Below are positions 2,842-32,178 of a stretch of 64,000 nucleotides of DNA, piece by piece. The notes under the pieces are model-generated. The model made no database searches and was not told where the DNA came from. It saw only the letters and a list, made by a program, of their open reading frames with translations. A program made the translations under genes and the position numbers. Source of the DNA: an uncultured Dehalococcoidia bacterium (lineage in GTDB: Bacteria; Chloroflexota; Dehalococcoidia; Lucifugimonadales; CAJWUJ01); contig CAJWUJ010000007.1 in NCBI GenBank assembly GCA_913047625.1, positions 495 through 64,494 of the forward strand, given 5' to 3'. How positions within the stretch are numbered: the stretch's first letter is position 1; each line of letters begins with the position of its first letter.

Positions 2842-3570
2842 GTGTCTTTATATAAACGTATAGGTGTGATTTTACCTTCCACAAATACTACAGTCGAAAG
2901 TGATTTTTTCAAAATGTCTCCAGATGGTGTCACCGTTCATTTCCATAGGATTCTTAGGAAATCTGGACTTATCGGTGATTATGAGATTCAAGAAGAGATG
3001 AATCAAGGAATTGATGAAGCTGCTACTATGCTTGCCTCCCTGCATCCTGATGTTATTGCTTATGCATGCACTGGAGGAAGTGTGCTCAAGGGTATTGGCT
3101 ATGACAGAGAACTTATTACCAGAATAGAAACTGCCTCTGGAGTTCCCGGTGTAACTACCGCTAGTGCCGTGGTTGAAGCATTACATTCGGTAGGTGCTAG
3201 GAAAATTTCTATAGCTACTCCTTACGGAGATGACGAAAATGACAGAATCCAAAGGTTTCTTAGTAACAGCGGATTTACAGTATTGAATATTGAGGGAGAT
3301 CCCTCGACTGCTAATAAGGAGGTTTCTGAAACCTCCGAAGAGTCATCTCTATCGGTAAAGAATTTTGCTAAGTCTGTGTGTCGCAGTGAGGCAGATGTGC
3401 TTTTTTGTGCTTGTACTGCCTGGCGTTCTCTTGAAATCGTCACTGAACTGGAGGCTGAATTATCTAAACCGGTTCTTACGGCCAACCAAGTAACGATGTG
3501 GTCTGCTTTACGTACTGTAAACATGTTGCAGTCTCAATCTGGGTTCGGTACCCTACTCACATCGGTTTAA
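2842..3570 (+). CDS. Asp/Glu/hydantoin-racemase superfamily protein, maleate isomerase / arylmalonate decarboxylase-like
   Basis: GTG start follows GGAGG (2831-2835). N-terminal IGVILPSTNTTVE. Two catalytic-type Cys in YACTGGS and CACTAWRS. Paralogous to 62452 and 63225. Confidence 0.85.
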   Translation: MSLYKRIGVILPSTNTTVESDFFKMSPDGVTVHFHRILRKSGLIGDYEIQEEMNQGIDEAATMLASLHPDVIAYACTGGSVLKGIGYDRELITRIETASGVPGVTTASAVVEALHSVGARKISIATPYGDDENDRIQRFLSNSGFTVLNIEGDPSTANKEVSETSEESSLSVKNFAKSVCRSEADVLFCACTAWRSLEIVTELEAELSKPVLTANQVTMWSALRTVNMLQSQSGFGTLLTSV

Positions 3571-3649: not shown

Positions 3650-5353
3650 ATGACTTCTGCAAGTGATTATATTCAATTAGAAGTACTTAAGAACTCCTTA
3701 GAGAGTATTGCTGACAGTATGGCTCTTACAGTTGTACGTACCTCTCGGTCATCTGTTGTAAAGACTGGTATGGATTTTTCTACGGCGGTACTGAGTCCCC
3801 GGGGTGAACTCGTTGGACAGGGACTTTGTTCTCCTATTCATTTAGGAGGTATGATGCCTGCTCTGAAGAGTTGCCTAGAGAGATATGAATCTCGAATTTA
3901 TCCTGGTGATGTATTAATAAACAATGATCCATATGAGGGAGGGAGTCATCTTCCTGATATTTTCCTTTTCAAACCAGTTTTTTTCAACGACGATTTAGTT
4001 GGGTATCTCTGTGCGATGACCCATCAAACCGATATTGGAGGTCGAGTTGCGGGAGGTAATGCGTGTGATTCAACTGAGATTTACCAGGAAGGGTTACGTA
4101 TTCCACCATTGAAATTGTATGAAAAAGGCTATCCGAATGATGCTTTATTTAGATTGTTGGAAAAGGCAGTTCGTGTACCTGATAAGGTATTGGGTGATGT
4201 GCAAGGGCAATTGGCTGCGTTAGATTTTGGAGAAAGAGAATTCAAAAAATTAGTTAGAAAATCTGGTGCGGAACAAATCAAGCAATCTATGGATGAATTG
4301 CTTGTATATACAGAAGAGCTTACACGGAAAGGGATAAGCCGTTTTCCTGATGGTTCGTGGTTGTTCAGTGACTACTTGGATGGTGACGGTATTTCAGACG
4401 AACAAATTAAAATATCTGTTAATCTGACGAAGCAGGGCGATCAAATACATGTTGACTTTTCTGGTACATCTGAGCAGTGCAAAGGGGCTATTCAACCAGT
4501 GTTTGCTACCAGTAAAGCTATGGTGTATGCAGTGCTGAGAAGTGTGCTGGGGTCTATGGGCTATGATGTACCGAATACTGCGGGCTATTTTAAGCCTGTG
4601 ACAGTCACTGCTCCTGAAGGTACCTTTGTTAATCCATTACCTCCAGCCCCTGTAGCTGCTCGTTCTTTGGGGTGTTTACGGGTTGCTCAGGCAGTCTTTG
4701 GCGCGTTTGCTCAGATGCTTCCTAGCGAGGTTTTTGCTTGTTTTGGAGGATGTGAACTAGGAATAAGTATGAGTGGTTACAATAACTCCAAGGTGCAGAG
4801 GGTGCCGTGGATACAATTGGAATTTCACAATCAACAAGCGATAGGGGGTTATCCTTGGCGAGATGCTTGTGATGCTCAGGTCCCTGGTTTTTCTACTGTT
4901 GCAAATATCCCAGCAGAACAATTGGAGATTGACCAGCCTTTGCAGGTACTCGATTACGGTTTTGTGACAGATAGTGAAGGAGCAGGACAGTATCGAGGCG
5001 GCTTAGGAATGGTTCGAGAATTTAGATATCTTGAAGATGATATTCAGGTACAGGTTCGCGCCGATAGAAAATCAACTCAGCCTTACGGTCTGTTTGGTGG
5101 TCACTCACCATCACCTACAGTAATTACGCTGAATTCAAAATCTGGTCATACACAAGATATGCCAACGAAGTTTTTGATAAATGTAAAGAAAGGTGATCGA
5201 TTAAGATTTCAATGGCCTGGTGCGGGAGGTTGGGGTGATCCTGCTAACCGAGATCACCAAGCGGTGTTAGAAGATGTTAGGAATAATAAAATCAGTCCAG
5301 AACGCGCTGTTAAGGTATATGGTTTGATTCCTGAACAGATAGCAAACCATTAA
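3650..5353 (+). CDS. Hydantoinase B/oxoprolinase-family protein (HyuB-type), full length
   Basis: 567 aa. Carries LEVLKNSLESIADSMALTVVRTSRS, NDPYEGGSHLPDIF, GGNACDSTEIYQEGLRIPPLKLY and WPGAGGWGDP. Confidence 0.93.
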   Translation: MTSASDYIQLEVLKNSLESIADSMALTVVRTSRSSVVKTGMDFSTAVLSPRGELVGQGLCSPIHLGGMMPALKSCLERYESRIYPGDVLINNDPYEGGSHLPDIFLFKPVFFNDDLVGYLCAMTHQTDIGGRVAGGNACDSTEIYQEGLRIPPLKLYEKGYPNDALFRLLEKAVRVPDKVLGDVQGQLAALDFGEREFKKLVRKSGAEQIKQSMDELLVYTEELTRKGISRFPDGSWLFSDYLDGDGISDEQIKISVNLTKQGDQIHVDFSGTSEQCKGAIQPVFATSKAMVYAVLRSVLGSMGYDVPNTAGYFKPVTVTAPEGTFVNPLPPAPVAARSLGCLRVAQAVFGAFAQMLPSEVFACFGGCELGISMSGYNNSKVQRVPWIQLEFHNQQAIGGYPWRDACDAQVPGFSTVANIPAEQLEIDQPLQVLDYGFVTDSEGAGQYRGGLGMVREFRYLEDDIQVQVRADRKSTQPYGLFGGHSPSPTVITLNSKSGHTQDMPTKFLINVKKGDRLRFQWPGAGGWGDPANRDHQAVLEDVRNNKISPERAVKVYGLIPEQIANH

Positions 5354-7807: not shown

Positions 7808-8800
7808 TTATGTAGCTACTGTTCTTTTGTATGGTAGTACCTCCGGATTTCTGATGTTTTCAGGTGTAGTTCCTGTTAATCCGTCAAAGACTTGCTGAGC
7901 AGTCCTCCTCGAGAGTTCCTGAAGGGATTGTTGCGAAAAAAATGCGACATGTGGGGTTAAAATGACGTTTTCAAGAGAGCGTAAGGGATGATCGAGCGGC
8001 AAGGGTTCTGGTTCAGTCACATCTAATGCTGCTCCAGCAATTTGATTCGATTGAATGGCCTGTACTAATGCTTCAGTATCAATGATACCACCCCGTGCGG
8101 CATTTATTATGCTGGCTGTTCTCTTCATCTGTTTGAATTGGTTTGCTCCAAATATTCCTTTTGTTTCGGCTGTAAGGGGTGCGTGAAGAGATATAAGGTC
8201 GGACTCTGATAAAAGTTCATCAAAAGTGACTAATCTGACATTTGTTCCGGTGACATCCTGCTTTTTAATAAAAGGGTCATATCCTATAACGTCCATATCG
8301 AATGCATATGCTCTTTTTGCCATCAATTGACCTTGTCTTCCTAACCCAAACAGGCCAAGTGTCTGATTGCTGAGCCTTGGTACGGGACTTGCGAGATCAA
8401 TTTGTGTTTGCTGACTGAAGGGGAGTAGTTGTCTATTGATAGCTAGGATTAGGGAAAAAGCATGACTAGTAACCTCCTGAACACAGTAATCAGGGATATT
8501 TGTAACTACTATGCCCAACTCAGTTGCAAGTTTAAGAGGAATATTATCAATGCCTACACCAAACCTTGAAAGTTGTACACATTTTGGTGCATTGAGAATT
8601 ACACTTTCTGGCACTGTTGCCCAGTTGAACATTATGGCGTCAGCATCGGCTGCGAGTTCAGCTAATGTGCTTGGTTTTGTGTCGGGTGCGCTCACTATAG
8701 ATGCGATACCTGAAAGGATTGATTCTTCTACCGTAAGAGAAGGCCAAGCATAGTCAGTAATTAAGACTGTAAATTTTTTGGATTTGCTGTTTGAATTCAT
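7808..8800 (-). CDS. D-isomer-specific 2-hydroxyacid dehydrogenase (CtBP/PGDH-like)
   Basis: GLFGLGRQG NAD-binding motif. Catalytic-type Arg/Glu/His in AARGG, DVTEPEP and TPHVAF. Confidence 0.88.
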   Translation of the reverse strand: MNSNSKSKKFTVLITDYAWPSLTVEESILSGIASIVSAPDTKPSTLAELAADADAIMFNWATVPESVILNAPKCVQLSRFGVGIDNIPLKLATELGIVVTNIPDYCVQEVTSHAFSLILAINRQLLPFSQQTQIDLASPVPRLSNQTLGLFGLGRQGQLMAKRAYAFDMDVIGYDPFIKKQDVTGTNVRLVTFDELLSESDLISLHAPLTAETKGIFGANQFKQMKRTASIINAARGGIIDTEALVQAIQSNQIAGAALDVTEPEPLPLDHPLRSLENVILTPHVAFFSQQSLQELSRRTAQQVFDGLTGTTPENIRNPEVLPYKRTVAT

Positions 8801-8901: not shown

Positions 8902-10521
8902 TTAATTTATCATCGGTTGGAACATACATCCTTCAACAAAAATATCAAAAAACTCAGGTTCCGTCTCAAGTTCAATATGGCGGATATTTGTGATTAAATC
9001 CTGTAATCCTTGCCGTTTCTTTATTGACAGCAGAAGAATTGTTGCTCCTAATAATGAGGCATTGCCACATTTTACAAAACGATTTTTGTCTATCGATGGT
9101 ATCAAACCTATAGATTGAGCATTTGGTATATTGATATAGTTTGCAAATGCTCCTGCGAGTAAAACAGTCTGTACGTTTGAAAATTGAACACCATATTTTT
9201 TAGCGGCTATATATTGACCGCAGTAATTAGCAGATTTGGCTTGAGCCAAGGCACTAAGGTCATGACGGTCAATAGTAATTCGACTCTTTTCCTCAATAAG
9301 AAACTCTTTTGAATTATTTATAAAAGCCCCAAGGGAGTTGAGCTGACCGGTCCTTCTCAGCTCTGCTATGACGTCAATTAATCCAGAACCACAAATGCCA
9401 CTTGCTGGCTGATCGTCGATTGTTTTATACCGTATAGAATGATCTTCCAATATAGCAAGGGATTCAATAGCACCGGCATATCCTGGCATACCGTGTTTTA
9501 CCTCACCGCCTTCAAAGGCAGGTCCAGCCGGACACGAAGCTGCGAGCATGCCATGTTTATTTCCAATAAGCACTTCAGTGTTGGTTCCGATGTCAATGAG
9601 CATCTGTATTTCGTTGTCCTCTGTATCCATTTTAGTTGCTATTAAGTCTGCAGCCACATCGGCTCCGATATGGCTGGCTATTATAGGTGCACCGTACACT
9701 AAACCCTGTGGGGACATTTGGATTCCCAGCTCTTTAGCGGTGGAATGTAGGGTAGTGGAGTTCCGTTTTCCTTGATTTAATTCATGTTCTGTCAGTGATT
9801 TATATGGCTTTTGTCCAATTGATTGGACGTCTAATCCAAAAAACAGGTCTCTCATTGTCGAGTTCCCTACTATCAAGACTTCATATATATGTTTACGTCT
9901 GATTTTCAGTAGTTTACAAGCATTTCTTATTTCGTGATTGAGACTTGAAATAATTGCTTTCTGAAGTTCACCCCGGAAGGGGGTAGCATCATATGAAATG
10001 CGCCTCATAATATCACTGCCACCAAACTTTTGAGGATTCTCAAACGATCCTGTGTATATAATGCCTCCCGATTCAAGATTGACAATGTTGAAAGCAACAG
10101 TGGTTGTCCCGATGTCTACTGCTATTCCGTATATAAATCCATCGTAGTCACTCAAGATGGTATTGTCTCCGTATACCTTACCGTCCTTATGTGTAATGCG
10201 TGGAAGAATTTCAAATTCTTGTGGTATATAACTCGTTAGGATTTGCCGTTGCTTCCTGGACAATCCAAAATGAATATCCGAGGAAGTTTTTTCTACTATA
10301 GCCTGACAGGCTAATCGGAAGTTTTCTTGGAGAAATAGTTCTTTCTTTGAAGGGGAATTTAGGTTTGCAGCACCATCTTTGATTTCCACAATGCATTCAT
10401 GACACCGGCCATTACGGTAGCACGATGTTGGTATTTTTACTCCCAGTAAATCTGCATGCTCAAATATTGATTTTCCGATTTGACAATCAGTCGAAACCTG
10501 TTCGAAATTAATTTGGGACAT
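8902..10521 (-). CDS. RACo-type corrinoid reductive activase (N-terminal 2Fe-2S ferredoxin + ASKHA ATPase body)
   Basis: N-terminal C-x5-C-x2-C (CYRNGRCHEC) plus a later LACQA Cys. 539 aa with ASKHA-like DIGTTT / DIGTNTE phosphate motifs. Last gene of the corrinoid operon. Confidence 0.8.
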   Translation of the reverse strand: MSQINFEQVSTDCQIGKSIFEHADLLGVKIPTSCYRNGRCHECIVEIKDGAANLNSPSKKELFLQENFRLACQAIVEKTSSDIHFGLSRKQRQILTSYIPQEFEILPRITHKDGKVYGDNTILSDYDGFIYGIAVDIGTTTVAFNIVNLESGGIIYTGSFENPQKFGGSDIMRRISYDATPFRGELQKAIISSLNHEIRNACKLLKIRRKHIYEVLIVGNSTMRDLFFGLDVQSIGQKPYKSLTEHELNQGKRNSTTLHSTAKELGIQMSPQGLVYGAPIIASHIGADVAADLIATKMDTEDNEIQMLIDIGTNTEVLIGNKHGMLAASCPAGPAFEGGEVKHGMPGYAGAIESLAILEDHSIRYKTIDDQPASGICGSGLIDVIAELRRTGQLNSLGAFINNSKEFLIEEKSRITIDRHDLSALAQAKSANYCGQYIAAKKYGVQFSNVQTVLLAGAFANYINIPNAQSIGLIPSIDKNRFVKCGNASLLGATILLLSIKKRQGLQDLITNIRHIELETEPEFFDIFVEGCMFQPMIN

Positions 10522-10530
10522 GTGTATTGC

Positions 10531-10791
10531 CTAGCTCTCCCAAGCGTCACGATAATCTAATTTATCGCTACCAGTGCATATAGGGAGGGTTTTCTCATTA
10601 CATTTAGAGGTTGTAACAACCTTTTGATTCCGACATCCAAAACGTGCGGTACATTGGTCTAATGCGTTTTTATATGGGCAACGCGACTTAGAAACTTCTG
10701 TGGCTGTATCAGCGATGCCCTGATAGATATCCCATAATTTTGCTAGACTTTCTTCAAGGGCCTTTTTTCTCTGAGGGTTACTAATATTCAT
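10531..10791 (-). CDS. Hypothetical small Cys-containing protein (86 aa)
   Basis: ORF lies between MetF and the activase, with a 17-nt gap on the MetF side and a 9-nt gap on the activase side. Five Cys in the C-terminal half (CPYK...C...C...C...C). No family recognised. Confidence 0.55.
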   Translation of the reverse strand: MNISNPQRKKALEESLAKLWDIYQGIADTATEVSKSRCPYKNALDQCTARFGCRNQKVVTTSKCNEKTLPICTGSDKLDYRDAWES

Positions 10792-10808
10792 AAGATGTAT
10801 CCATCAAA

Positions 10809-11747
10809 TTAGTTCCCCGATTTTCGGGACTTCACTTCTTTATCTAGAATGGACTCTGAAACAATTTCAGGAACCAAATGGTCTAAAAGGTATGCCATTA
10901 TGTGTACACCAGCAATTCCTTCAATGGACCTCACTTGATTGATGATATCAATGCATATTTTTTTGCCTTCCTGAATCTGGGATTCTTTTGGTGTTCTTCT
11001 AAGTAGCCCAATTGTCTCATCCGGTATTACGACCCCTGGTACGTTTTTTGTAATCCATTCAGCAGTTGCTGCGGATTTTAGCGGGCCTACTCCTACAAGT
11101 ATGTGGCATTGTTTGTCTAATCCAAGATCCCGTGCTGTTTCCATAAAGCTTTTCAATCGGGGTATATCAAAGCAATACTGAGTTTGGATAAATTGACAAC
11201 CTGCTTCTATTTTCTTTTGAAGCCTGAATGGGCGAAAATCAAAAGGAGGAGCGAATGGATTTGATGCTGCTCCTAGAAACAAATCAGGTTGATTTTCGAG
11301 TTTTCGGCCACTTAGGAAAGTACCTGTATTCTTGATGTGAGATATGGTTTGAAGTAAAGTAATGGAATCAAGGTCAAATACGGCCTTCGCTTCAGGATGA
11401 TCTCCTGTTTCAACACCATCACCGGTCAGACATAAAATATTACGTATTCCGAGTGCATGGGCCCCAATAACGTCTCCTTGAATAGCTATACGATTACGGT
11501 CTCTGCAGGATATTTGTAGGATGGGCTCAATACCTTGATCGATCATAATCTTACTTGCTGCCATACTAGACATATGACAATGTGCTCCAGATGCATCGGT
11601 GGCATTTATTGCGTCACACGAGTGTTTCAGGTGATCTAGTCTCTCAATTAGTGTTGAGTGGGTACTAGCATCTGGAGAAGAAACTTCACTGGTGATCACA
11701 AAGTCTTTATTATCAAATAATTTTTGAAGGTTAGAAGCATATGGCAT
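10809..11747 (-). CDS. metF: Methylenetetrahydrofolate reductase (acetogen-type MetF)
   Basis: ITSEVSSP...DAINATD...EPILQISCRDRNRIAIQGDVIGAHALGIRNILCLTGD matches the MTHFR barrel pattern. 312 aa. Confidence 0.85.
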   Translation of the reverse strand: MPYASNLQKLFDNKDFVITSEVSSPDASTHSTLIERLDHLKHSCDAINATDASGAHCHMSSMAASKIMIDQGIEPILQISCRDRNRIAIQGDVIGAHALGIRNILCLTGDGVETGDHPEAKAVFDLDSITLLQTISHIKNTGTFLSGRKLENQPDLFLGAASNPFAPPFDFRPFRLQKKIEAGCQFIQTQYCFDIPRLKSFMETARDLGLDKQCHILVGVGPLKSAATAEWITKNVPGVVIPDETIGLLRRTPKESQIQEGKKICIDIINQVRSIEGIAGVHIMAYLLDHLVPEIVSESILDKEVKSRKSGN

Positions 11748-11753
11748 GATAAG

Positions 11754-12179
11754 TTACCTAGTAGATGAGTGTATATCATTAAGCCAAGCCGAAGTACCTG
11801 TTAGTCTCCGATCGAGTGGCTTTTGTATAGTATAAATATCCTTTTGATGATTTCGCATCTTTTTTGATTGATCCCATGCCCGTACCCACACACATTTCAT
11901 GGTTGGTTGTATCTCACAGTTTCCGTTCTGGCGTACACCTCCACATGGTCCGTTCCTGAGATTCTTGGGACAATTCATGGGGCACACCATACCTGTTGAG
12001 TGCAATATGCACTGACCGCACATTTTACAATTAAATAGTGGTTTTTTAGTAACTGTTTCTATCCCAATAAAAACTGTACTTGTCACTCTATTTTGCCTGA
12101 ACACAGGTTTAAGTCGATGCAAAATCGAGCGGGATATTTCATAGGAGATTTCTAGCAATCTTAGTCTTGCAGTTTGCAC
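11754..12179 (-). CDS. metV: MTHFR C-terminal-domain (MetV-type) Cys-rich protein
   Basis: CKMCGQCILHSTGMVCPMNCPKNLRNGPCGG is the Cys pattern of the MTHFR_C/MetV family. GTG start. The stop lies 6 nt before the metF start. Confidence 0.75.
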   Translation of the reverse strand: MQTARLRLLEISYEISRSILHRLKPVFRQNRVTSTVFIGIETVTKKPLFNCKMCGQCILHSTGMVCPMNCPKNLRNGPCGGVRQNGNCEIQPTMKCVWVRAWDQSKKMRNHQKDIYTIQKPLDRRLTGTSAWLNDIHSSTR

Positions 12180-12269
12180 GTCTATTGCTCCATGACTTGA
12201 ATATTCAAGACGTTAGATTGGCTAATTATACGTGGCTTTTAAGGATTGGCAAAATCAACGGGAAAGTAG

Positions 12270-13001
12270 TTATTTGAGATTCAAGAGTTCCTTGGCAATG
12301 TCAACACAATCTATGGCATCCTTTCCGTAGCCATCCGCACCCATTTCGTCTGCGAAATCTTGAGTTACCGGTGCCCCTCCTACCATGACTTTGACTGCAT
12401 CACGGATTCCAGCTTCCTCAAACGCTTCTATAGTTCTGCCCATATTAGGCATAGTGGTTGTTAAAAGGGCAGACATACCTATTAAAGAAGCCTCTTGCTC
12501 TTCAATTGCTTCAATGAATTCTTCAGGTTTTGTGTCTACTCCCAAGTCATGAACTACAAATCCTGCTCCTCGAAGCATCATTATACAAAGGTTTTTGCCA
12601 ATATCATGAAGGTCTCCCTTGACTGTTCCCATAATCACTATGCCTAGGGGAGGTATGTCGGAGGCTGAAAGAATAGGCTCGAGATGGGCCATACCGGCTT
12701 TCATAGCTCGTGCTGAAATGAGTACTTCGGGGACAAAAATAATATTGTCGCGAAACTTTATGCCAACAATAGCCATCCCGGCTATTAAACCATCGTCTAG
12801 GATAGTATTAGCTTCATAGTTTTCATCTAAGGCTTGTTTGGTAAGCCGATCAACTGTTTCGTTGTCACCGCAGATCAATGCGTACGAAACCTGCTGCATA
12901 AGGGCATCAGTTTTCTCCAACATTTTAGTGATATGTTGGAGTTCGTCCTGTTTTGATATATGGGTTAATTCCTCTAGAAGACCTTTGTTGGTAATTGGCA
13001 T
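12270..13001 (-). CDS. Corrinoid (cobalamin-binding) protein
   Basis: DLHDIGKN (DxHxxG), SALLTTT and GGAPV motifs of the B12-binding Rossmann domain, preceded by a helical cap domain. 243 aa. Confidence 0.9.
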   Translation of the reverse strand: MPITNKGLLEELTHISKQDELQHITKMLEKTDALMQQVSYALICGDNETVDRLTKQALDENYEANTILDDGLIAGMAIVGIKFRDNIIFVPEVLISARAMKAGMAHLEPILSASDIPPLGIVIMGTVKGDLHDIGKNLCIMMLRGAGFVVHDLGVDTKPEEFIEAIEEQEASLIGMSALLTTTMPNMGRTIEAFEEAGIRDAVKVMVGGAPVTQDFADEMGADGYGKDAIDCVDIAKELLNLK

Positions 13002-13080
13002 AACAATATTCTGTTCCTTCTTACTGCCTGACTAAAATACCCTTTATTTGTGCATAAAACAAGGTTAGAAACTGAACGTT

Positions 13081-14103
13081 CTATAATTTATTGGAGCGGA
13101 AAGCCTGAAGATACCGTACGCAAAACTCATCGTGTCCCATTAGCATATCAGCAGCAATTGCCGCACTAGGGTCATTTAGATCAAGTGCTAATATTTCTTC
13201 GATACTTGTTTGCACTGGGTCGATTATGCCTCCATCTGCTCCGTTTTGAATGGCCAGCTTGGTAAAGACCGCATTGATAAGTTTGCGCTTTGGTAACCCG
13301 AATGATATGTTGCTAAGGCCGCCAATTATATGAATTTCCTGTCCGAATTCCTGACGCAGATCAGCTACTGCGTTCAGGTAGTCTGTGCCAAAGGTGCTAT
13401 CTACAGAAATAGGGAATACCAATAAATCTACGAAAATATCTGAAAGCTCTATATTTCTCTTTAATGCTTCCTCTATCATAGCCTTGGCGTTTTGAACCCT
13501 TTCTGCTGAATTTGACGGCATACCTTCTCTGCCAGCAGCTGTTACAACCACTTGCGCGTTATGTTCTCTCACAAGATCCAGCGTATCAACCCTCTCGAGA
13601 GCAGCGGAGTTGATTAGAGGCCGGCCTAAAACCCCGTTGTATTTGTTAAGACCTGCTTGGATGATATCGGTACTGGAAGAATCAATGCTAGGAGGAGTGG
13701 AGGCAATTTCTTGATAGAGGTCAACTAACCATTCCATTGCAGCAATTTGTGTTGGTTGCTTGTAGGAAATTTCATCGATATTAAGATCGAGAAAATGCAC
13801 ACCTTTGAGTTCCTGCGCTAAAATCTCTGATTGAAGAAAACTCACTGCCTCTTCAGAACCAGACATGCCACTTTCTATTGCCAGCATCATATGCTTAATA
13901 TGGCCTTGCTGGTAGGATTGTTTCTCCTTGTGGGAGTCAGTGACTAGTATGTAGTCTTGATTGCCTTCCTTATTTATAAAAGAAACGACTTCGGTGCCAT
14001 TACTTAAAGTAGCGGATCTTTTCCCGTTTCTTTTGACTACCCTTGTTGTGTGTATATTTTCTCCGATGATAATGAACTTGTTGATATCTTTTGCGTAGTT
14101 CAG
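13081..14103 (-). CDS. Methyltetrahydrofolate:corrinoid methyltransferase (pterin-binding domain); start revised upstream to CTG
   Basis: The AMEWLVDLYQEI...IDSSSTDIIQAGL...PLINSAA pattern resembles AcsE/MeTr. The frame is open upstream of the track's ATG (13890) and encodes KFIIIGENIHTTR, the family N-terminus. There is no ATG/GTG/TTG there; CTG at 14103 lies 10 nt after AAGGAG. Confidence 0.75.
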   Translation of the reverse strand: MNYAKDINKFIIIGENIHTTRVVKRNGKRSATLSNGTEVVSFINKEGNQDYILVTDSHKEKQSYQQGHIKHMMLAIESGMSGSEEAVSFLQSEILAQELKGVHFLDLNIDEISYKQPTQIAAMEWLVDLYQEIASTPPSIDSSSTDIIQAGLNKYNGVLGRPLINSAALERVDTLDLVREHNAQVVVTAAGREGMPSNSAERVQNAKAMIEEALKRNIELSDIFVDLLVFPISVDSTFGTDYLNAVADLRQEFGQEIHIIGGLSNISFGLPKRKLINAVFTKLAIQNGADGGIIDPVQTSIEEILALDLNDPSAAIAADMLMGHDEFCVRYLQAFRSNKL

Positions 14104-14117
14104 TTTGGATGATCTCC

Positions 14118-15149
14118 TTAATGTGTTTTATGCCATTCTTTAACAGCTTCCGGTATAGCTAGTAAGTTTTCCAGTTTAGTTGCTAAAGGAATAGCACATT
14201 CAGGCGCGATTAGATTCATTCCTGCATCTAAGCAATTGAAAACAGCTTCTCGGATATCTTCAGGATTTTTGGAATACAATAACTCTGGATTGTTGAGGTT
14301 ACCTACTAATCGAATTTTCCCATCTGCTATTTCCATTGCTTCATGAGGATCGTTTTTAGAGTCTATATGAAATGCTGCCATGCCTGTTTGAGCTATGTAT
14401 CCTAGTCGATCTACTGTTTTCCCGCAAATATGAAGAATAAGAGGACATGGGATTCTCTCCTCCATTTCTTGATGGAGTTCCATGAGGAATTTTCGGTAAT
14501 ATTCCCCACTGACAAGATCGCCCGTGGCATGATCGGGAAAGGTTAAGGCATCCGCACCGGATTCGATTTGCGCTAGGGCAAATGCCACAGAAATTTCCTT
14601 TAGTTTGTCGAGGCATCGTTTAGTTTTATCTGGATCATCGATGCTCATAAGAAGAAACTTTTCCACACCGAACACGTGATATGCAAGCGTCCATGGACCC
14701 ATTGATTTACCTATAACGGCTACTTGGTCACCGTATTCTTTTTGAAGAATCTCCAGTGATTTCAAGACCACTACAATATCTTTGTGTGACCAGAACCCTT
14801 GAGGTATGTGTACGTCTTCAGGACCAGACCAAATTGGATTGTACATTCGTACTGTGGGCCAGTTGTCTTTTGTTTCCCACTGCATTTCGCATCCGAGTGC
14901 CGACGATTCTTGTATAATTGAAAATACTGGCATAATGCTATCAAAGCCGAGTTCAGTGTAACCAGTAGCGGCTAAGCGGGCGTTCATTTCTGGATCACGA
15001 TTGGCTTCTGGAAAAGGAGCTTTGACTAAGTCCATTAATTCCACAGTTGCAACATTTGTAGGATTTGACACTGGTGTGCGGTCAACAGGTTTCCCAGCCA
15101 AAGCATTTAGAACGCGTTCTCTAGGTTTCATTGTTTCTACTAAAGTCAC
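14118..15149 (-). CDS. MtaA/CmuA-like methylcobamide methyltransferase (uroporphyrinogen decarboxylase family)
   Basis: N-terminus KPRERVLNALAGKPVDRTPV. Zinc-ligand contexts LHICG and ECAIP. GTG start 4 nt after GGGAGGA. Confidence 0.82.
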   Translation of the reverse strand: MTLVETMKPRERVLNALAGKPVDRTPVSNPTNVATVELMDLVKAPFPEANRDPEMNARLAATGYTELGFDSIMPVFSIIQESSALGCEMQWETKDNWPTVRMYNPIWSGPEDVHIPQGFWSHKDIVVVLKSLEILQKEYGDQVAVIGKSMGPWTLAYHVFGVEKFLLMSIDDPDKTKRCLDKLKEISVAFALAQIESGADALTFPDHATGDLVSGEYYRKFLMELHQEMEERIPCPLILHICGKTVDRLGYIAQTGMAAFHIDSKNDPHEAMEIADGKIRLVGNLNNPELLYSKNPEDIREAVFNCLDAGMNLIAPECAIPLATKLENLLAIPEAVKEWHKTH

Positions 15150-15159
15150 ATTATCCTCC

Positions 15160-15834
15160 CTAAACTTGGGAAAAACCCAGTGTTTGTGTGGTTAACTGAC
15201 CACGCATATTATCCGACTCTAGTTGGTCTTCCACCGCGGATATGTTTTTGGCATAGGGTAAAATCAGTCGAACTAATTTGTCATGTCGTTTTCGAGATGG
15301 AAAACATGCGGAAATATTATCAATTTCTTCCAGACTACCAAATTTAGATAATCCGCGGATTACTGCCCTGATTCTCATGGGAATATTTTTATATTCACCC
15401 TCGGAACTGATTGTGTATTTCCATCCGTCGGCTGTATTCTCGGGAGTTGCAATAATAGTCAAAGGACTTTTTGTATCGCGTACCTCTATCCGTCCTTTGT
15501 TGAGGGAAAATCCGTAGGGTTTTTCTACTGCTAACCTGAATGCAAATTTCAATGGACTTATCGGAATGATTTCATCGGGAAATGTGAGTTGGTTGGGGGA
15601 GTCTTTAATGGATTTCATATCCGTTAAGCTAACTAACTGTTCAGTGATTTGAATGAGCCTTTCTTGATATCCTTCTGCCCGGTGGAATGTCCAAACAGTA
15701 AAGGTCTTATTTTTTAGATACAACGCTACTGACATGTCTTCAAAATGGGGATCCATTGGAATAAGACTTATGCATTTACCATAATCATGCATAACCTGCA
15801 AGACAGACTTAACATTCACTGATTCTGATTGCAT
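15160..15834 (-). CDS. Hypothetical protein (224 aa) embedded in the corrinoid operon
   Basis: The ORF starts 2 nt after the upstream stop (TAA-GG-ATG) and ends 10 nt before the MtaA-like start. No motif recognised. Confidence 0.7.
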   Translation of the reverse strand: MQSESVNVKSVLQVMHDYGKCISLIPMDPHFEDMSVALYLKNKTFTVWTFHRAEGYQERLIQITEQLVSLTDMKSIKDSPNQLTFPDEIIPISPLKFAFRLAVEKPYGFSLNKGRIEVRDTKSPLTIIATPENTADGWKYTISSEGEYKNIPMRIRAVIRGLSKFGSLEEIDNISACFPSRKRHDKLVRLILPYAKNISAVEDQLESDNMRGQLTTQTLGFSQV

Positions 15835-15836
15835 CC

Positions 15837-16739
15837 TTAACAGAGTCCTTTCTTATCTAGAAGATCTCTTAGCATTTCAATATGTTTTGGGGTAACTCCA
15901 CAACAGCCCCCTACAATCTTAGCACCTCTTTCAATTAAAGAGATGAAATACTCTGCCATGTACTCTGGCTCTTCATTATATACTACCTCTTTCCCTACAA
16001 TTTTTGGTATTCCTGCATTGGAGTGAATGAGAATTGGCTTGGAAGATGTTCTCCTAAGTAATTCGAAAATCTCTGTCATTTGGTCAATTCCGTTGCCGCA
16101 GTTAGCACCTAGAACAGCAACATTAGTATTTGAAAGTGCTGTTACAGTTTGATCAGGCGTGACGCCCATCATCGAAAAATAACCTCTTGGCCCCTTATCA
16201 AATGTCATCGTAGCAAGTATTGGCAGTGCAGTTGATTTATGGATAGCATCAATAGCGATTGTTATTTCATCGAGTGATGTCATCGTTTCTACGAGAATAC
16301 CGTTTGCGCCTCCCTCTTCAAGTGCTTGGGCTTGTGCTGCAAATGCATCATACATTTCTTCATGACTTACGTTTCCTAATGGCTGAAGAAATTCACCAGA
16401 GGGACCTATGGACCCTATAACCCATTGATTTTCCCCTGCTGCCATACGACCTAGACTTGCTGCTTCTCTATTGATTTCGTGTAGTTGTGATTCTACCCCG
16501 TATTTTTTTAGCATAAACTTGTTGCCACCGAATGAATTGGTGAGGACCATATCCGACCCAGCATCGAAGAAACTCTTAGCCATTTGCCTAATCACAGTGG
16601 GTTGTGTGAGGTTGAGTTTTTCGGGACTGTCTCCAGGTTCCAATCCGTGGCTTTGAAGATAAGTTCCAATTCCTCCATCTGAAATGAAATAGGGAGATTT
16701 TGCTAGATGATCAAGGAAATTTAAATATTGCTCAGTCAT
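15837..16739 (-). CDS. Homocysteine S-methyltransferase-domain protein (MetH Hcy-module-like)
   Basis: FISDGGIGT, LGANCGNG and VGGCCGVTPKHI (three-Cys zinc site). Start placed at ATG 16739, which forms an ATGA overlap with the upstream stop; the track's 16757 is the alternative. Confidence 0.85.
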   Translation of the reverse strand: MTEQYLNFLDHLAKSPYFISDGGIGTYLQSHGLEPGDSPEKLNLTQPTVIRQMAKSFFDAGSDMVLTNSFGGNKFMLKKYGVESQLHEINREAASLGRMAAGENQWVIGSIGPSGEFLQPLGNVSHEEMYDAFAAQAQALEEGGANGILVETMTSLDEITIAIDAIHKSTALPILATMTFDKGPRGYFSMMGVTPDQTVTALSNTNVAVLGANCGNGIDQMTEIFELLRRTSSKPILIHSNAGIPKIVGKEVVYNEEPEYMAEYFISLIERGAKIVGGCCGVTPKHIEMLRDLLDKKGLC

Positions 16740-17098
16740 TGTGTTTCCTTTACCCAATGATCAATCGATCCAGGCGTTCCTAACCTAGAACCAGACTTAT
16801 GAAGATCACGAATACGTTTGACAAAATCTTCAGGAAAATTACAGTTGAATTTATTACTTAAATGGCTTGTAGTTTCTGTCGCAGTCTTGTTAAATTCTTG
16901 CCAGTTACCCCATATCCATGAATTTAGATATTCGTCGGAGGTAATACTTTGATCGAACATAGCAATAGCATCTACGGCTTCTTGAAATTTGGGAGCTAAA
17001 GGAACTGATACAGTTTGTTGATTGTCGGATACCTGGAATTGAACTGGTATTTCCTTCCAGTATAGGATTCTGGCTTTGGCCTTTGGTGATTTGTTCAT
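16736..17098 (-). CDS. Small conserved protein, possibly 'virulence factor' domain family associated with MTHFR/corrinoid clusters
   Basis: ILYWKEIPVQFQV...KFQEAVDAIAM resembles that family from memory. Start taken at ATG 17098, the first ATG after a TATAAT at 17138-17133. The track's GTG 17236 would overlap the divergent gene. Confidence 0.5.
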   Translation of the reverse strand: MNKSPKAKARILYWKEIPVQFQVSDNQQTVSVPLAPKFQEAVDAIAMFDQSITSDEYLNSWIWGNWQEFNKTATETTSHLSNKFNCNFPEDFVKRIRDLHKSGSRLGTPGSIDHWVKETQ

Positions 17099-17223: not shown

Positions 17224-17928
17224 TTGATTGTGACACGATGTAAAACGTTTTTGTTTATTTTTGCCCATCCTGATGATGAAACTACGAGCAGTGGTGGAAC
17301 CATGGCTAAACTTGTGCGACAGGGTCATACGGTTTATGTATGTGTAGCAACAAAAGGAGAAGAAGGAACTCTTGGATCAGGAGGTTTTAGTGTAAAACGT
17401 AGTGATTTACCCCGTGTGCGAGAACAGGAACTCAGGGATGCTCTTGATATGTATGGAACTGAACCTCCGATTTTTTTAGGCTATAAAGATAAGCAATTAG
17501 AATTAATAGGACAAGAAGAGCTTCAAGGGCGTTTTTATCAGATAATAAATGCGATAGCTCCTGATTTTCTGATTACTTTTGGCCCAAGTGGTATTTCTCA
17601 GCATCCTGATCATATTGCCGTACACAAGAACGCAACTGCCGCATTTCATACTTTTCAATCATGCCATTCCTGTAGCAAACTTTTCTACGTAGCAATACCT
17701 GACATGTACAATGACTTTGACCTTAACTTGTCAGAAATAGAACGGAATCCGAATGTAATTATTGATATTACAGACGAATTTGATCTTAAGATAGCTGCCT
17801 TGAGGAACTACAAGAGTCAGGAGGATGCACAGTTCATGGCTAAGTTTTTCGAACAAAATAAGATATATTTTGAGTCATATGCTGAATGGAACGGAGCCGA
17901 TACACCCTCTATTCGAGATCAGTTTTGA
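17224..17928 (+). CDS. PIG-L/LmbE family deacetylase
   Basis: FAHPDDE and HPDH zinc-site motifs. The start is TTG 17224 or GTG 17230 (after AAGGA). Confidence 0.85.
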   Translation: MIVTRCKTFLFIFAHPDDETTSSGGTMAKLVRQGHTVYVCVATKGEEGTLGSGGFSVKRSDLPRVREQELRDALDMYGTEPPIFLGYKDKQLELIGQEELQGRFYQIINAIAPDFLITFGPSGISQHPDHIAVHKNATAAFHTFQSCHSCSKLFYVAIPDMYNDFDLNLSEIERNPNVIIDITDEFDLKIAALRNYKSQEDAQFMAKFFEQNKIYFESYAEWNGADTPSIRDQF

Positions 17929-24873: not shown

Positions 24874-25007
24874 TAGATATGATTCTCCTCTTATTATTTT
24901 AAAACTGAGGAAAATTCCATAAGTGTGCAAACGCTGGATTTATGGAATAATTATTGTAGTGATTTGACATTTTGGCAGCAATATTTGGCAGGGAAGGAGT
25001 GTGTATT

Positions 25008-28664: not shown

Positions 28665-29882
28665 TTGGCTCAGATAAGTTTTCCTAATATAAAGATATCA
28701 CGGGATTTTCATAAAATTCTTGAAAAAGCATTGGACGGTTATTTGCCTTCAAAGAAAGAGGCTACAGTAGTTCTTGATAGGTCAGAAAAAGAACTATCCT
28801 CTCTATTACTTGTTGCAGGGCAGATCAGGGATCAAGAAAAGGGTAAAACACTCACATATTCAAAGAAAGTATTTATCCCTCTTACGAATATGTGCCGCGA
28901 TCGCTGTGGATATTGTACTTTTGTGAAAAGCCCGAAAGAGAAAGAGTCACATTATTTGACGCCTGATCAAGTATTGGATATTGCTTTAGCAGGCTATAAA
29001 CAAGGATGTAAGGAAGTATTATTTAGTTTGGGAGATCATCCTGAATGGCGACATCGGGAGGCCAAGGAATGGTTGGAGCATTTAGGTTATAGTTCCACTC
29101 CTGAATATGTTATGGCAATGTCAGCTATGGTTTTAGATGAGACAGGGCTTCTGCCTCATACCAATGCGGGTATTCTTTCTCGTGATGAATTACTGGGGCT
29201 ACGAGAGACTAATGTGAGCATGGGGATAATGCTTGAAAATGTCAGTGTCCGACTCCTAAATCGAGGTGGGCCTCATTTCGGATGTGACAGTAAAGAGCCG
29301 TCTTTGAGACTTAATGTACTTCGAGAGGCAGGTAAATTGGGTATTCCTATGACTACAGGGATTTTAATTGGTATTGGTGAGACTCCTGAAGAACGATTGG
29401 AGTCGCTTCTCGCTATTAAAGGAATACATGAGGAGTATGGGAATATCCAAGAGGTTATCATTCAAAATTTTAGGGCGAAGACCAAAACCCGGATGTACAA
29501 AAAAGAAGAGCCTTCTACCGTGGATATGCTTCGGACTTTAGCAATGGCTAGACTAGTCTTAGGAGGATCGATGAATATTCAGGCGCCTCCTAATTTAAAT
29601 TCAGATGCCTGTCAAACGTATATCCTTGCTGGTATTAACGATTGGGGAGGAGTCTCTCCGGTCACTCCAGATCATATTAATCCTGAAGCTCCATGGCCTG
29701 CTATAAAGCAATTGAGTCACTTAACTGAAGAATGTGGTTACAATTTAAGAGAACGCCTGGCAATATATCCTGAGTTTCTGTGTGACGATTTATCTGCTTT
29801 TCCTCCTGCGCTTAGAAAGGCAGTGGCTGTGAAAATTCAAGAGGTAGGTTACAATGTGGAGACAGGGAGAGATGTGCTGTGA
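28665..29882 (+). CDS. cofG: FO (7,8-didemethyl-8-hydroxy-5-deazariboflavin) synthase subunit CofG
   Basis: Radical-SAM CRDRCGYC. Collinear with CofH downstream through a GTGA overlap. Confidence 0.88.
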   Translation: MAQISFPNIKISRDFHKILEKALDGYLPSKKEATVVLDRSEKELSSLLLVAGQIRDQEKGKTLTYSKKVFIPLTNMCRDRCGYCTFVKSPKEKESHYLTPDQVLDIALAGYKQGCKEVLFSLGDHPEWRHREAKEWLEHLGYSSTPEYVMAMSAMVLDETGLLPHTNAGILSRDELLGLRETNVSMGIMLENVSVRLLNRGGPHFGCDSKEPSLRLNVLREAGKLGIPMTTGILIGIGETPEERLESLLAIKGIHEEYGNIQEVIIQNFRAKTKTRMYKKEEPSTVDMLRTLAMARLVLGGSMNIQAPPNLNSDACQTYILAGINDWGGVSPVTPDHINPEAPWPAIKQLSHLTEECGYNLRERLAIYPEFLCDDLSAFPPALRKAVAVKIQEVGYNVETGRDVL

Positions 29883-31189: not shown

Positions 31190-31230
31190 GCGTACTCTGA
31201 GAGCATTGGCAGGAAACAGAGGATCTTCAA

Positions 31231-32169: not shown

Positions 32170-32178
32170 AGAACCAAA

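Follow-up and report, generated by a model that had tools for sequence, protein, structure and literature searches.

In aerobes, a split form of MetH, the Mtg hub, both makes methionine and removes methyl groups from glycine betaine (Price 2018; Mausz 2025; PMC5764234, PMC12478193). In the Mtg hub of Phaeobacter inhibens, Ruegeria pomeroyi, and Sinorhizobium meliloti, the homocysteine (Hcy) methyltransferase, the pterin methyltransferase, the corrinoid protein, and a RamA/RACo-type activase are separate proteins, and a single corrinoid protein serves several methyltransferases. Genetics in Ruegeria and Phaeobacter has established that MtgC, MtgD, and MtgE, together with the RamA-like activase, serve methionine synthesis and demethylation both (PMC5764234, PMC12478193). 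The combination of a modular MetH and an ATP-dependent activase is thus not new (Price 2018; Mausz 2025).

The locus described here lies in a 64,000-nucleotide stretch of DNA (the window), in which ten tightly spaced ORFs occupy positions 8902-17098 of the minus strand. As the initial annotation had it, these ORFs are all co-oriented, and they form a genuine operon of an uncultured marine SAR202-type bacterium (Table 1). This operon likewise encodes separate Hcy and pterin methyltransferases, one corrinoid protein to serve them, and an activase. On the evidence of its sequence, and with somewhat more belief than doubt, we read it as a variant of the MtgBCDE/split-MetH-type corrinoid methyl-transfer hub, in which a methyltransferase of the URO-D superfamily would form a third spoke, probably on the donor side.

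Table 1. Genes of the operon and the gene that follows it, with positions in the window
Positions	Strand	Feature	Support or remark
16736..17098	-	PF13769 ("Virulence_fact") protein, 120 aa	Pfam E 3e-11
15837..16739	-	Homocysteine S-methyltransferase, 300 aa, MetH-type Hcy module (MtgE/"Bmt"-like)	PF02574 7e-67
15160..15834	-	U224, 224-aa protein without Pfam family	Obligate neighbor of URO-D methyltransferase
14118..15149	-	MtaA/CmuA-family (URO-D superfamily) zinc methyltransferase, 343 aa, GTG start	PF01208 2e-68
13081..14103	-	Methyl-THF:corrinoid methyltransferase, pterin-binding barrel, MtgD/MeTr-like, ~340 aa	PF00809 1e-18
12270..13001	-	Corrinoid protein, 243 aa, B12 cap + Rossmann domain	PF02607, PF02310
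11754..12179	-	MetV, Cys-rich small subunit of MetVF-type methylene-THF reductase, 141 aa	PF12225 (MTHFR_C/DUF5981) 1e-28
10809..11747	-	MetF, methylene-THF reductase catalytic subunit, 312 aa	PF02219 4e-33
10531..10791	-	U86, four-cysteine protein, 86 aa	Conserved in 62 loci
8902..10521	-	RACo/RamA-type ATP-dependent reductive activase of corrinoid proteins, 539 aa	PF00111, PF17651, PF14574
7808..8800	-	D-2-hydroxyacid dehydrogenase, 330 aa, PGDH/glyoxylate-reductase-like	PF02826, PF00389

Three junctions show translational coupling of the genes. An ATGA overlap at 16736-16739 joins the stop of the PF13769 gene to the start of the Hcy methyltransferase gene, TAA-GG-ATG at 15839-15832 joins the latter to U224, and TAG-GGAGGATAAT-GTG at 15162-15147 joins U224 to the URO-D gene. 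The first two read as previously annotated; at the third, the spacer given, GGGAGGA, was approximately right. Gene neighborhoods in related genomes bear out the grouping, since 80 fetched loci, spread over several phyla, show this set in synteny, and it is thus not a product of chance. All of the motifs quoted in the initial annotation (GANCG/GGCCG, IIIGENIH/LDLN/AMEWLV, DLHDIGKN, LHICG/ECAIP, and CYRNGRCHEC) are present in the translations, and its domain calls (S-methyl_trans, Pterin_bind, B12-binding with its cap, URO-D, RACo, MTHFR, and MTHFR_C) were all confirmed by Pfam/NCBIfam profile searches. Two of the three proteins that it listed without a family, U224 and U86, keep that status, and the third is the PF13769 protein.

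On the same strand, a gap of 101 nt separates RACo from the 2-hydroxyacid dehydrogenase gene that follows it. The product of this gene scores 225 bits against the PGDH model, under that model's cut-off. Its orthologues lie downstream of RACo in 8 other loci, and paralogues adjoin MetV in 6 Acidobacteriota loci; it may be an eleventh, loosely associated member of the operon. Genes for a BVMO and a luciferase-like monooxygenase are also found among the neighbors in the window, and such oxygenase-type neighbors are consistent with an aerobic background of the host.

For seven of the ten genes, the S. meliloti Mtg locus has a counterpart with 32-54% identity, which supports the hub reading. The Hcy methyltransferase, whose GANCG and GGCCG motifs are of the zinc-thiolate type, finds its best PDB match in the Hcy domain of T. 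maritima MetH (1Q7M, 175 bits, compared to ~55 bits for BHMT and MmuM) and is 37% identical to S. meliloti Bmt. The pterin methyltransferase (PRK07535, 182 bits) is closest in the PDB to D. hafniense MT2 (4O0Q) and MeTr (2YCI), and is 32% identical to MtgD. Its coordinates hold as first given, with an unusual start: inspection of the sequence revealed no ATG, GTG, or TTG for the conserved N-terminus, of which the 70 residues ahead of the first ATG can be aligned with homologues. The probable start codon is the CTG at 14103, which lies 10 nt after AAGGAG and is identical in 5 public contigs. The corrinoid protein carries the DxHxxG motif as DLHDIGKN and is 48% identical to MtgC; in the PDB it matches Moorella 1Y80 and MttC best, and the MetH B12 domain less well. 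MetV and MetF are 51% and 54% identical to their S. meliloti counterparts. The PF13769 protein, which appears to be a conserved accessory of the hub, is found in most related loci and shares 35% identity with the product of the "virulence factor" gene preceding MetV-MetF-MtgD in S. meliloti; its homologues are of ~113 aa, and the ATG at 17098 therefore fits as its start.

The activase comprises a [2Fe-2S] ferredoxin domain (Fer2, CYRNGRCHEC), a middle domain (RACo_middle), and an ASKHA domain (RACo_C). It is AcsV-like (300 bits) and shares 34% identity with the ASKHA protein encoded in the S. meliloti Mtg locus. That RACo takes the place of the MetH activation domain, as the initial annotation proposed, is supported and had already been established (PMC5764234, PMC12478193). 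U86 has no family match and shares the motif RCPYK-x6-RCTA-FGCRNQ...CTGSD-LDYR-AWE across the loci that carry it. Its usual place is between the corrinoid protein and RACo, and in one genome (locus L090) it is fused to the RACo N-terminus, which suggests that it is probably an accessory module of the activase.

Against TIGR01463, the model of the MtaA/CmuA family, the URO-D protein scores 265 bits, above the cut-off of 235, and it also clears the PRK06252 cut-off. It falls short of the equivalog cut-offs for MtaA (245 bits, cut-off 400) and MtbA (213 bits, cut-off 600). Its closest solved relative is M. mazei MtaA (4AY7, 32% identity), with which its His/Cys/Cys zinc ligands and fourth-position Asp align. 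Such His-Cys-Cys ligands are typical of S/Se-methyltransferases (PMC10418091) and suggest chemistry on soft atoms (S/Se). No gene of the cluster is better conserved than URO-D (65-81% identity; median 72% across 69 loci), which, together with the corrinoid protein (median 71%), is far ahead of the other members. U224 lies directly upstream of URO-D even where relatives are only 25-30% identical. No Pfam or NCBIfam match to U224 was found even at E 10, and its confident AF2 model (pLDDT 88, pTM 0.83) has no PDB fold match. Its relatives number 247 among 1.84 billion representatives, and none of them is fused. An assignment to DUF1638 was rejected on comparison.

The URO-D-type cluster is present in at least 218 species genomes of Dehalococcoidia/SAR202, Acidobacteriota, and SAR324, plus a divergent proteobacterium-like branch, and all of its carriers are uncultured. 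The searched literature yielded no description of this URO-D/split-MetH arrangement. The constant members are URO-D, U224, U86 (with RACo), and the corrinoid protein; the Hcy and pterin methyltransferases differ from locus to locus. In the 57 loci whose flanks are long enough, URO-D is accompanied within ±10 kb by a pterin methyltransferase only in 21 (all Acidobacteriota), by an Hcy methyltransferase only in 20, and by both in 7, with copies elsewhere in those genomes possible. A MetH-type Hcy methyltransferase stands in the same operon in 53 of the 80 loci, including this window. Three distant loci (L091, L097, and L090) keep the same set in another gene order. In 7 SAR202-type loci, the cluster is followed by a regulator of SahR architecture (PMC4239095 for SahR) and a canonical MetF, which ties it to the methionine cycle.

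In the proposed hub, the small corrinoid protein would carry the methyl group on cobalt, and RACo would return oxidized Co(II) to active Co(I) with ATP and one electron, probably helped by U86. Three methyltransferases would dock in turn onto this single corrinoid protein. Through the first, the pterin-barrel enzyme would swap methyl groups with tetrahydrofolate, MetV and MetF connecting the CH3-THF pool to methylene-THF; through the second, the MetH-type enzyme would yield methionine. Judged by homology to systems established genetically, these two spokes, the corrinoid protein, and RACo would make up a complete split methionine synthase. In the third, the MtaA-like zinc enzyme with U224 would link a small molecule of sulfur, selenium, or halide type, filling the place that MttB-family MtgB (with DUF1638) holds in Alphaproteobacteria. 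We infer that this spoke most likely loads methyl groups onto the hub from an activated or a sulfur-, selenium-, or halide-type donor. Given the 21, 20, and 7 clusters above, each type of cluster could work by itself only with URO-D on the donor side. The modular methionine synthase and the demethylase, which had been offered as alternatives, are each supported, but as halves of one hub, as the double function in Ruegeria and Phaeobacter indicates.

URO-D could instead be an MtaA-like methyl-corrinoid:thiol S-methyltransferase on the acceptor side, ending a path from methylene-THF through MetVF, the pterin methyltransferase, and the corrinoid protein to a thiol, a reading that we find unlikely but weighty. 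The thiol could be homocysteine, making URO-D a non-orthologous methionine-synthase module in Acidobacteriota, or another low-molecular-weight thiol, sulfide, or selenide. MtaA and MtbA, the closest characterized relatives of URO-D, are acceptor-side thiol methylases and not donor-side enzymes, which counts against the donor-side reading, as does a conservation that looks more housekeeping than catabolic. Transfer from methyl-pterin to a thiol is favored by about -30 kJ/mol, so loading THF from a thioether would run uphill in the 21 Acidobacteriota clusters with a pterin methyltransferase only. The conserved zinc ligands and the methionine-cycle neighbors also fit an acceptor, and the Acidobacteriota and L090 clusters (URO-D, pterin methyltransferase, corrinoid protein, and RACo, with or without MetVF) would then be complete pathways. 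A second Hcy methylase would, however, be redundant in the 53 loci that already have a translationally coupled one, and the 20 loci lacking a nearby pterin methyltransferase would hold two acceptors and no donor. Moreover, no candidate thiol emerged, the neighboring bacillithiol-type deacetylase not being conserved with the cluster.

A methyl halide donor would lift the thermodynamic objection, and the layout parallels cmuA/cmuB/metF2/folD/purU on pCMU01. URO-D with the corrinoid protein would then act as CmuA, the pterin methyltransferase as CmuB, and MetVF as MetF2, dehalogenating methyl halides to methyl-THF or methionine in a split aerobic chloromethane pathway. The family model covers CmuA, which keeps the HxC...C motif too, and the CmuA C-domain shares 38% identity with the corrinoid protein. 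This pathway is nonetheless improbable, as URO-D is only 24% identical to the CmuA methyltransferase (N-terminal) domain, against 32% for MtaA, and was rejected as a CmuA-like enzyme; tblastn at E 1e-5 did not recover cmuA, folD, purU, and cmuC are absent among the neighbors, and the gene upstream of cmuA is unrelated to U224. Still less probable is a methionine synthase alone, with URO-D, U224, U86, and PF13769 as unrelated passengers or generic B12-handling factors and no third substrate. The Hcy and pterin methyltransferases, corrinoid protein, RACo, and MetVF would be enough for methionine (PMC5764234), and PF13769 recurs in S. meliloti, but it is URO-D and U224 that form the constant core, with URO-D the most conserved gene and its catalytic zinc site complete, and the Hcy and pterin methyltransferases that are dispensable. 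An O-demethylase or methylamine/quaternary-amine system of the kind found in acetogens and methanogens, toward which the initial annotation had leaned in its O-demethylase form, has very little probability left. Its general layout of methyltransferase, corrinoid protein, methyltransferase, and activase matches, and the pterin enzyme is closest to an O-demethylase MT2. The zinc ligands of URO-D are, however, Cys/Cys and not carboxylate, unlike OdmB/MtvB-type enzymes, and the protein belongs to the MtaA-like branch, at ~17% from the OdmB/VdmB type (PMC10418091); no MttB-family gene was found in the window or in the 98 loci with the URO-D-type cluster, and the hosts and neighboring genes look aerobic.

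Compared to known systems, the operon thus favored as a donor-side hub shares features with several. The methanogen coenzyme M methyltransferases MtaA, MtbA, and MtsA (4AY7) are soluble and have the same full-length URO-D TIM barrel with His-x-Cys...Cys and an acidic fourth ligand, but the operon's hosts are bacterial, no coenzyme M context was seen, and its URO-D is paired with folate- and homocysteine-dependent methyltransferases and U224. Type 1 mlp clusters, proposed to act on methyl-sulfur or methyl-selenium compounds, have in common an SCMT-like URO-D with His-Cys-Cys, a corrinoid protein, and a bacterial RACE/RACo activase (Kountz & Balskus preprint, PMC10418091). They have two or three Mlps but no H4folate methyltransferase and are confined to obligate anaerobes, Firmicutes for the most part (PMC10418091), whereas the operon has one URO-D gene with pterin and Hcy methyltransferases, MetVF, U224, U86, and PF13769; its URO-D protein is only ~25% identical to an Acetoanaerobium UroD-family gene product adjoining a corrinoid protein. 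CmuA/CmuB of Methylorubrum extorquens CM4 likewise combine an MtaA/CmuA-family methyltransferase, a corrinoid module, a pterin methyltransferase, and a dedicated MTHFR in an aerobe. CmuA, however, fuses the methyltransferase and corrinoid domains that are separate proteins here, and its locus has folD and purU, which are absent here, and no adjoining Hcy methyltransferase, RACo, U224, U86, or PF13769.

The Mtg hub is closest. It had been considered that all components might nest in a characterized system with the same gene order, and seven of the ten do: PF13769, the Hcy and pterin methyltransferases, the corrinoid protein, MetV, MetF, and the activase, with the S. meliloti sub-operon order PF13769-MetV-MetF-pterin methyltransferase-...-activase. 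The MtaA-like URO-D, U224, and U86 have no counterpart there. Unlike the Mtg hub of Alphaproteobacteria, the components here stand all in one operon, the hosts are Chloroflexota, Acidobacteriota, and SAR324, and no MttB or DUF1638 homologue occurs in the window or in the 98 loci carrying the URO-D-type cluster. The new part is the MtaA-like URO-D, U224, and U86, which stand where the Mtg hub has the MttB-family donor methyltransferase and DUF1638.

The corrinoid methyl-transfer operon consists of ten ORFs, all on the minus strand and spaced by -4 to ~100 nt. These encode, in order, a PF13769 protein, a homocysteine (Hcy) methyltransferase, the 224-aa protein U224, the MtaA-like methyltransferase URO-D, a pterin methyltransferase, a corrinoid protein, MetV, MetF, the 86-aa protein U86 and the activase RACo. 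Junctions read from the sequence include an ATGA at 16739-16736, in which the TGA of gene 1 is shared with the ATG of gene 2, a TAA-GG-ATG between genes 2 and 3, and a TAG-GGAGGATAAT-GTG between genes 3 and 4. The operon described in the initial annotation is real and was parsed correctly, in that all of the quoted motifs are found in the translations and each domain call is backed by profile searches. Of the three proteins left there as unknowns, U224 and U86 are indeed orphans, but the first belongs to PF13769 ("Virulence_fact").

The modules of methionine synthase (MetH) are present as separate proteins. The Hcy methyltransferase carries an S-methyl_trans domain (PF02574, 7e-67) with the GANCG and GGCCG motifs of the Cys3 zinc site expected of a separate Hcy module, and it is of the MetH type, as its best PDB match, the Hcy domain of T. 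maritima MetH (1Q7M), scores 175 bits compared to ~55 for BHMT and MmuM. The pterin methyltransferase (Pterin_bind, PF00809, 1e-18; PRK07535, 182 bits) and the stand-alone corrinoid protein, which contains a B12 cap (PF02607), a B12-binding domain (PF02310) and a DxHxxG motif in the form DLHDIGKN, are nearer to methylotrophy-type proteins (D. hafniense MT2 4O0Q and MeTr for the former, Moorella 1Y80 and MttC for the latter) than to MetH domains. RACo has the three-domain layout of RACo/RamA, with Fer2 (PF00111, 6e-9), RACo_middle (PF17651, 1e-41) and a C-terminal ASKHA domain (RACo_C, PF14574, 2e-67). The AdoMet activation domain of MetH (PF02965) has no match among the window's ORFs of at least 150 aa, and within the window the combination of a RamA/RACo-like ASKHA activase with no such domain is that of a split MetH. 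Among the same ORFs there is also no metH, metE, MttB or DUF1638. The adjacent MetF and MetV genes are of the MetVF type (MTHFR, PF02219, 4e-33; Cys-rich MTHFR_C/DUF5981, PF12225, 1e-28). By homology to genetically proven systems, the Hcy methyltransferase, pterin methyltransferase, corrinoid protein, RACo and MetVF would make up an entire pathway from methylene-THF to methionine in which reactivation depends on ATP. This homology supports the earlier reading of a modular MetH served by RACo, but that reading describes biology that is already known.

The start of the pterin methyltransferase is unusual. Its gene has no ATG, GTG or TTG upstream of 13890, and the 70 residues encoded upstream of that position (FIIIGENIH...) align with homologues. 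The sole in-frame near-cognate start is a CTG at 14103, 10 nt after an AAGGAG (start region 14085-14120). The sequence of this region is identical in five public contigs, in all of which the gene is called at 269 aa, and the first barrel strand is thereby lost. This constitutes a systematic annotation error in this lineage, in which a non-canonical start codon leads to public gene calls that are too short. On the BATS scaffold (L002), ten Ns at ~11060-11090 lie within the N-terminal coding region of the same gene; they represent a scaffolding gap and account for the differing gene coordinates there. At the head of the operon, PF13769 homologues measure ~113 aa, which fits an ATG at 17098 for gene 1.

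Other genes of the window fit an aerobic SAR202-type heterotroph, and include four hydantoinase-B paralogues, amidohydrolases, a BVMO, a luciferase-like monooxygenase, F420 biosynthesis genes and housekeeping genes. The Hydantoinase_B and arylmalonate-decarboxylase-like sets look like paralogue expansion. A 2-hydroxyacid dehydrogenase may be a loosely linked eleventh member of the operon, as eight other loci have an orthologue downstream of RACo, and six Acidobacteriota loci have paralogues next to MetV. The PIG-L deacetylase gene is divergent from the operon and overlaps the longest possible ORF of gene 1; it was dismissed as a pointer to a thiol substrate, because it is not conserved beside the cluster elsewhere. 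No riboswitch was matched by Rfam in the window at gathering thresholds, and the region upstream of the operon gave none even with E relaxed to 1. Promoter and terminator scans gave sites no more numerous than in shuffled sequence.

Positions of the operon, selected members and neighbouring features in the window
Feature	Position	Strand	Remarks
Operon, ten genes	8902-17098	-	predicted corrinoid methyl-transfer hub
U86	10531-10791	-	86 aa
Pterin methyltransferase	13081-14103	-	probable CTG start
URO-D	14118-15149	-	MtaA-like
U224	15160-15834	-	224 aa
D-2-hydroxyacid dehydrogenase	7808-8800	-	PGDH/glyoxylate-reductase-like, under every equivalog cut-off; 101 nt downstream of RACo
PIG-L family deacetylase	17224-17928	+	closest to bacillithiol BshB2, 109 bits, under cut-off
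F420 biosynthesis block	28665-32877	+	two radical-SAM CofG/CofH-like genes, cofD, cofC
Luciferase-like monooxygenase	34456-35427		near F420 block
Four Hydantoinase_B/oxoprolinase paralogues	10-1542, 3650-5353, 23095-24930, 59230-60981		no adjoining Hydantoinase_A gene
Three arylmalonate-decarboxylase/racemase-like paralogues	2842-3570, 62452-63183, 63225-63956		
RNase H domain and MoaC (molybdenum cofactor synthesis) in one ORF	55088-55996	+	directly after MoaA-like radical-SAM gene

URO-D matches the PF01208 model at 2e-68 and, over its full length, exceeds the cut-off of the MtaA/CmuA family (TIGR01463, 265 bits vs 235.4) as well as that of PRK06252 (277.8 vs 244). It falls under the cut-offs of the MtaA/MtbA equivalogs (methylcobamide:CoM methyltransferases), with 245 vs 400 for NF040654 and 213 vs 600 for NF041608. 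Compared to MtaA of M. mazei (4AY7), URO-D shows 32% identity, with the His/Cys/Cys zinc ligands (LHICG, PECA) aligned and an acidic residue at the fourth zinc-ligand position.

U224 is predicted with confidence by AF2 (pLDDT 88), and its model has no fold match in the PDB. Its invariant residues are polar (D28 and R59 among them) and include no cysteines. A profile search of 1.84 billion representatives yielded only 247 relatives, and no Rosetta-stone fusion was found among them. Two candidate identities were ruled out, namely DUF1638 (hhalign probability 0.4%) and a protein thiol substrate, for which Cys21 is not conserved in the wider family. U86 has four conserved cysteines. In a high-GC relative (L090, 12513-14465) its sequence is fused to the N-terminus of RACo in one ORF of 650 aa; such a Rosetta stone links the two proteins functionally, and U86 is probably a RACo accessory. 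In a pSymB-labelled S. meliloti record (L099, CP090106.1, 15909-21375), a PF13769 gene annotated as "virulence factor" heads a sub-operon of MetV, MetF, MtgD, a hypothetical protein and an ASKHA protein. As this is a known Mtg sub-operon, PF13769 would be a family of accessory proteins for corrinoid methyltransferases whose name misleads, and its positions in the present cluster family and in S. meliloti suggest that it assists the MetVF/Hcy side in general.

The exact URO-D protein of the window occurs on marine metagenome contigs from Tara Oceans and BATS in identical gene order, and relatives are labeled Chloroflexi, SAR202 or Dehalococcoidia. With U224 as probe, at least 218 species-representative genomes encode a relative. 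Eighty loci fetched in this way, all from MAGs, belong to Dehalococcoidia/SAR202, Acidobacteriota, SAR324 and Aminicenantes. No carrier has been cultured, and each is known from a MAG or a metagenome contig. When the ORFs of the fetched loci were searched with the ten window proteins, a recurring order was seen: PF13769, [Hcy methyltransferase], U224, URO-D, [pterin methyltransferase], corrinoid protein, U86, RACo, [MetV MetF], where brackets mark variable members. Cluster types were counted in the 57 loci with enough flank. URO-D occurs with the pterin methyltransferase, mostly with MetV/MetF and without the Hcy methyltransferase, in 21 loci, all from Acidobacteriota. It occurs with the Hcy methyltransferase and without the pterin methyltransferase in 20 loci (Dehalococcoidia, Chloroflexota and one Acidobacteriota-labelled MAG), while both accompany it, as in the window, in seven Dehalococcoidia/Chloroflexota MAGs, several of them SAR202-type. 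Eight Dehalococcoidia loci contain only PF13769, the Hcy methyltransferase and U224.

In a divergent branch, where U224 is 25-30% identical, it still lies directly upstream of URO-D. Here L090 has the order U224, URO-D, corrinoid protein, RACo, pterin methyltransferase, and L091, whose neighbours are gammaproteobacterium-like, has U224, URO-D, corrinoid protein, U86, RACo, a MetF/V fusion, pterin methyltransferase, Hcy methyltransferase and PF13769. L097 resembles L091, minus MetFV and the pterin methyltransferase. In seven SAR202-type loci (L024, L042, L056, L061, L067, L071, L072; e.g. L042 14812-18035) the cluster is followed by a SahR-like regulator, MetF and the 2-hydroxyacid dehydrogenase. 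The regulator joins an ArsR-HTH to a SAM-methyltransferase fold, which is the architecture of SahR (PMC4239095). The same loci encode both a canonical NAD(P)H MetF and a 5′-end fused MetF-MetV (550 aa), and each thus has two different MTHFRs. The regulator, canonical MetF and dehydrogenase are supporting context for the methionine route.

URO-D and the corrinoid protein are far better conserved across phyla than all neighbouring genes. Over more than 80 loci, identity to the window protein is 65-81% for URO-D (median 72%; divergent branch 65-68%) and 62-76% for the corrinoid protein (median 71%; divergent branch 62-64%). Other operon members have medians of 41-57% and fall to 25-36% in the divergent branch, and neighbours overall range over 25-58%.

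On balance, the operon is probably, if not strongly so, a three-spoke hub with URO-D on the donor side. URO-D and U224 would form the third spoke on one shared corrinoid protein, in the niche that MtgB holds in the Mtg system of Ruegeria. A donor role is favored by parsimony, because clusters with URO-D and the Hcy methyltransferase, with URO-D and the pterin methyltransferase, and with both would then all be complete pathways. Thiols, however, are the usual methyl acceptors of MtaA-type enzymes, and the extreme conservation of URO-D resembles that of a housekeeping enzyme, both of which speak for URO-D on the acceptor side. Energetics also enter, as methyl transfer from a thioether to THF is uphill by ~+30 kJ/mol, by analogy with methyl-H4MPT:CoM. 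Unless the donor were activated (a halide or a sulfonium), the Acidobacteriota clusters would therefore be more sensible as routes that carry methyl groups from methyl-THF to a thiol. Set against the parsimony of a donor role, acceptor-side URO-D is possible, though doubtful.

A split chloromethane pathway is very unlikely. The HTC and PGC of CmuA align at the zinc-ligand places of URO-D, but CmuA orthology is ruled out by an identity of 24% over 302 aa of the CmuA methyltransferase domain, and CmuA fuses methyltransferase and corrinoid domains that are here encoded by separate genes. A tblastn search at E 1e-5 also failed to recover CmuA. According to Kountz and Balskus (PMC10418091), His-Cys-Cys is a mark of the superfamily's S/Se-methyltransferases, whereas O-demethylases carry carboxylates. 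By this criterion URO-D, which keeps both cysteines, is set apart from O-demethylase MT1 proteins of the OdmB/VdmB/MtvB type, in which zinc ligands are carboxylates or absent. Type-1 mlp clusters contain two or more different Mlps (Mlp2 and Mlp3), lack an H4folate methyltransferase and occur in obligate anaerobes (PMC10418091), while the present operon has one URO-D gene and a pterin methyltransferase, and so lies outside that definition. The remaining rivals are more improbable still.

Within the donor-side reading, a narrower proposal, unlikely as it stands, is that URO-D/U224 loads methyl groups into a cobalamin-dependent pathway whose donors are methyl-sulfur, methyl-selenium or methyl-halide compounds, either volatile or dissolved. 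Candidate donors would be dimethylsulfide, methanethiol, DMSP-type sulfonium compounds and CH3Br/CH3I, and the methyl group would pass either straight to homocysteine (a folate-independent methionine synthase) or to THF, in abundant aerobic lineages such as SAR202, SAR324 and soil or sponge Acidobacteriota. If this is true, aerobes would have a candidate for their cobalamin-dependent "DMS methyltransferase", an enzyme long proposed and never identified (discussed in PMC6548844), and three orphan protein families would be assigned functions. The operon itself suggests that one-carbon and sulfur metabolism takes up or releases a methyl substrate not recognised so far. It also extends the B12 demand known for bacteria of the dark ocean and of soil, and gives three conserved orphan proteins clear genomic partners (U224/URO-D, U86/RACo and PF13769/MetVF-Hcy genes).

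It was not until 2025 that corrinoid hubs joining methionine synthesis to demethylation were recognised in aerobic marine bacteria, in each case with MttB-type donors. Fitness genetics had earlier established that methionine synthesis in Phaeobacter relies on a three-part MetH together with a RamA-like activase and DUF1638 (Price et al., PMC5764234). [quoted passage not shown] 2025, PMC12478193). The text of that paper makes no mention of PF13769, MtaA, URO-D, SAR202 or Chloroflexi, and literature searches found no description of a URO-D-type cluster in SAR202, Acidobacteriota or SAR324.

The S. meliloti Mtg locus encodes Bmt, an MttB-family protein, a ferredoxin, the corrinoid protein and DUF1638 separately, and it also contains the sub-operon headed by PF13769, in which MtgD is the methyl-THF:cobalamin methyltransferase. 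Seven of the ten window proteins are matched there: the PF13769 protein by the "virulence factor" (35% identity), the Hcy methyltransferase by Bmt (37%), the pterin methyltransferase by MtgD (32%), the corrinoid protein by MtgC (48%), MetV by MetV (51%), MetF by MetF (54%) and RACo by the ASKHA protein (34%). URO-D, U224 and U86 have no counterpart in that locus, whereas homologues of the MttB family (PF06253; MtgB) and of DUF1638 are absent from the window and from 98 loci. The methanogen-type MtaA-like enzyme is the center of a second widespread hub design, present in at least 218 species-level genomes (SAR202/Dehalococcoidia, Acidobacteriota, SAR324) and in a divergent proteobacterium-like branch. 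The operon is a widespread variant of the Mtg-type hub, for which no description was found, and it combines an MtaA-like methyltransferase with three orphan proteins and a putative third substrate.
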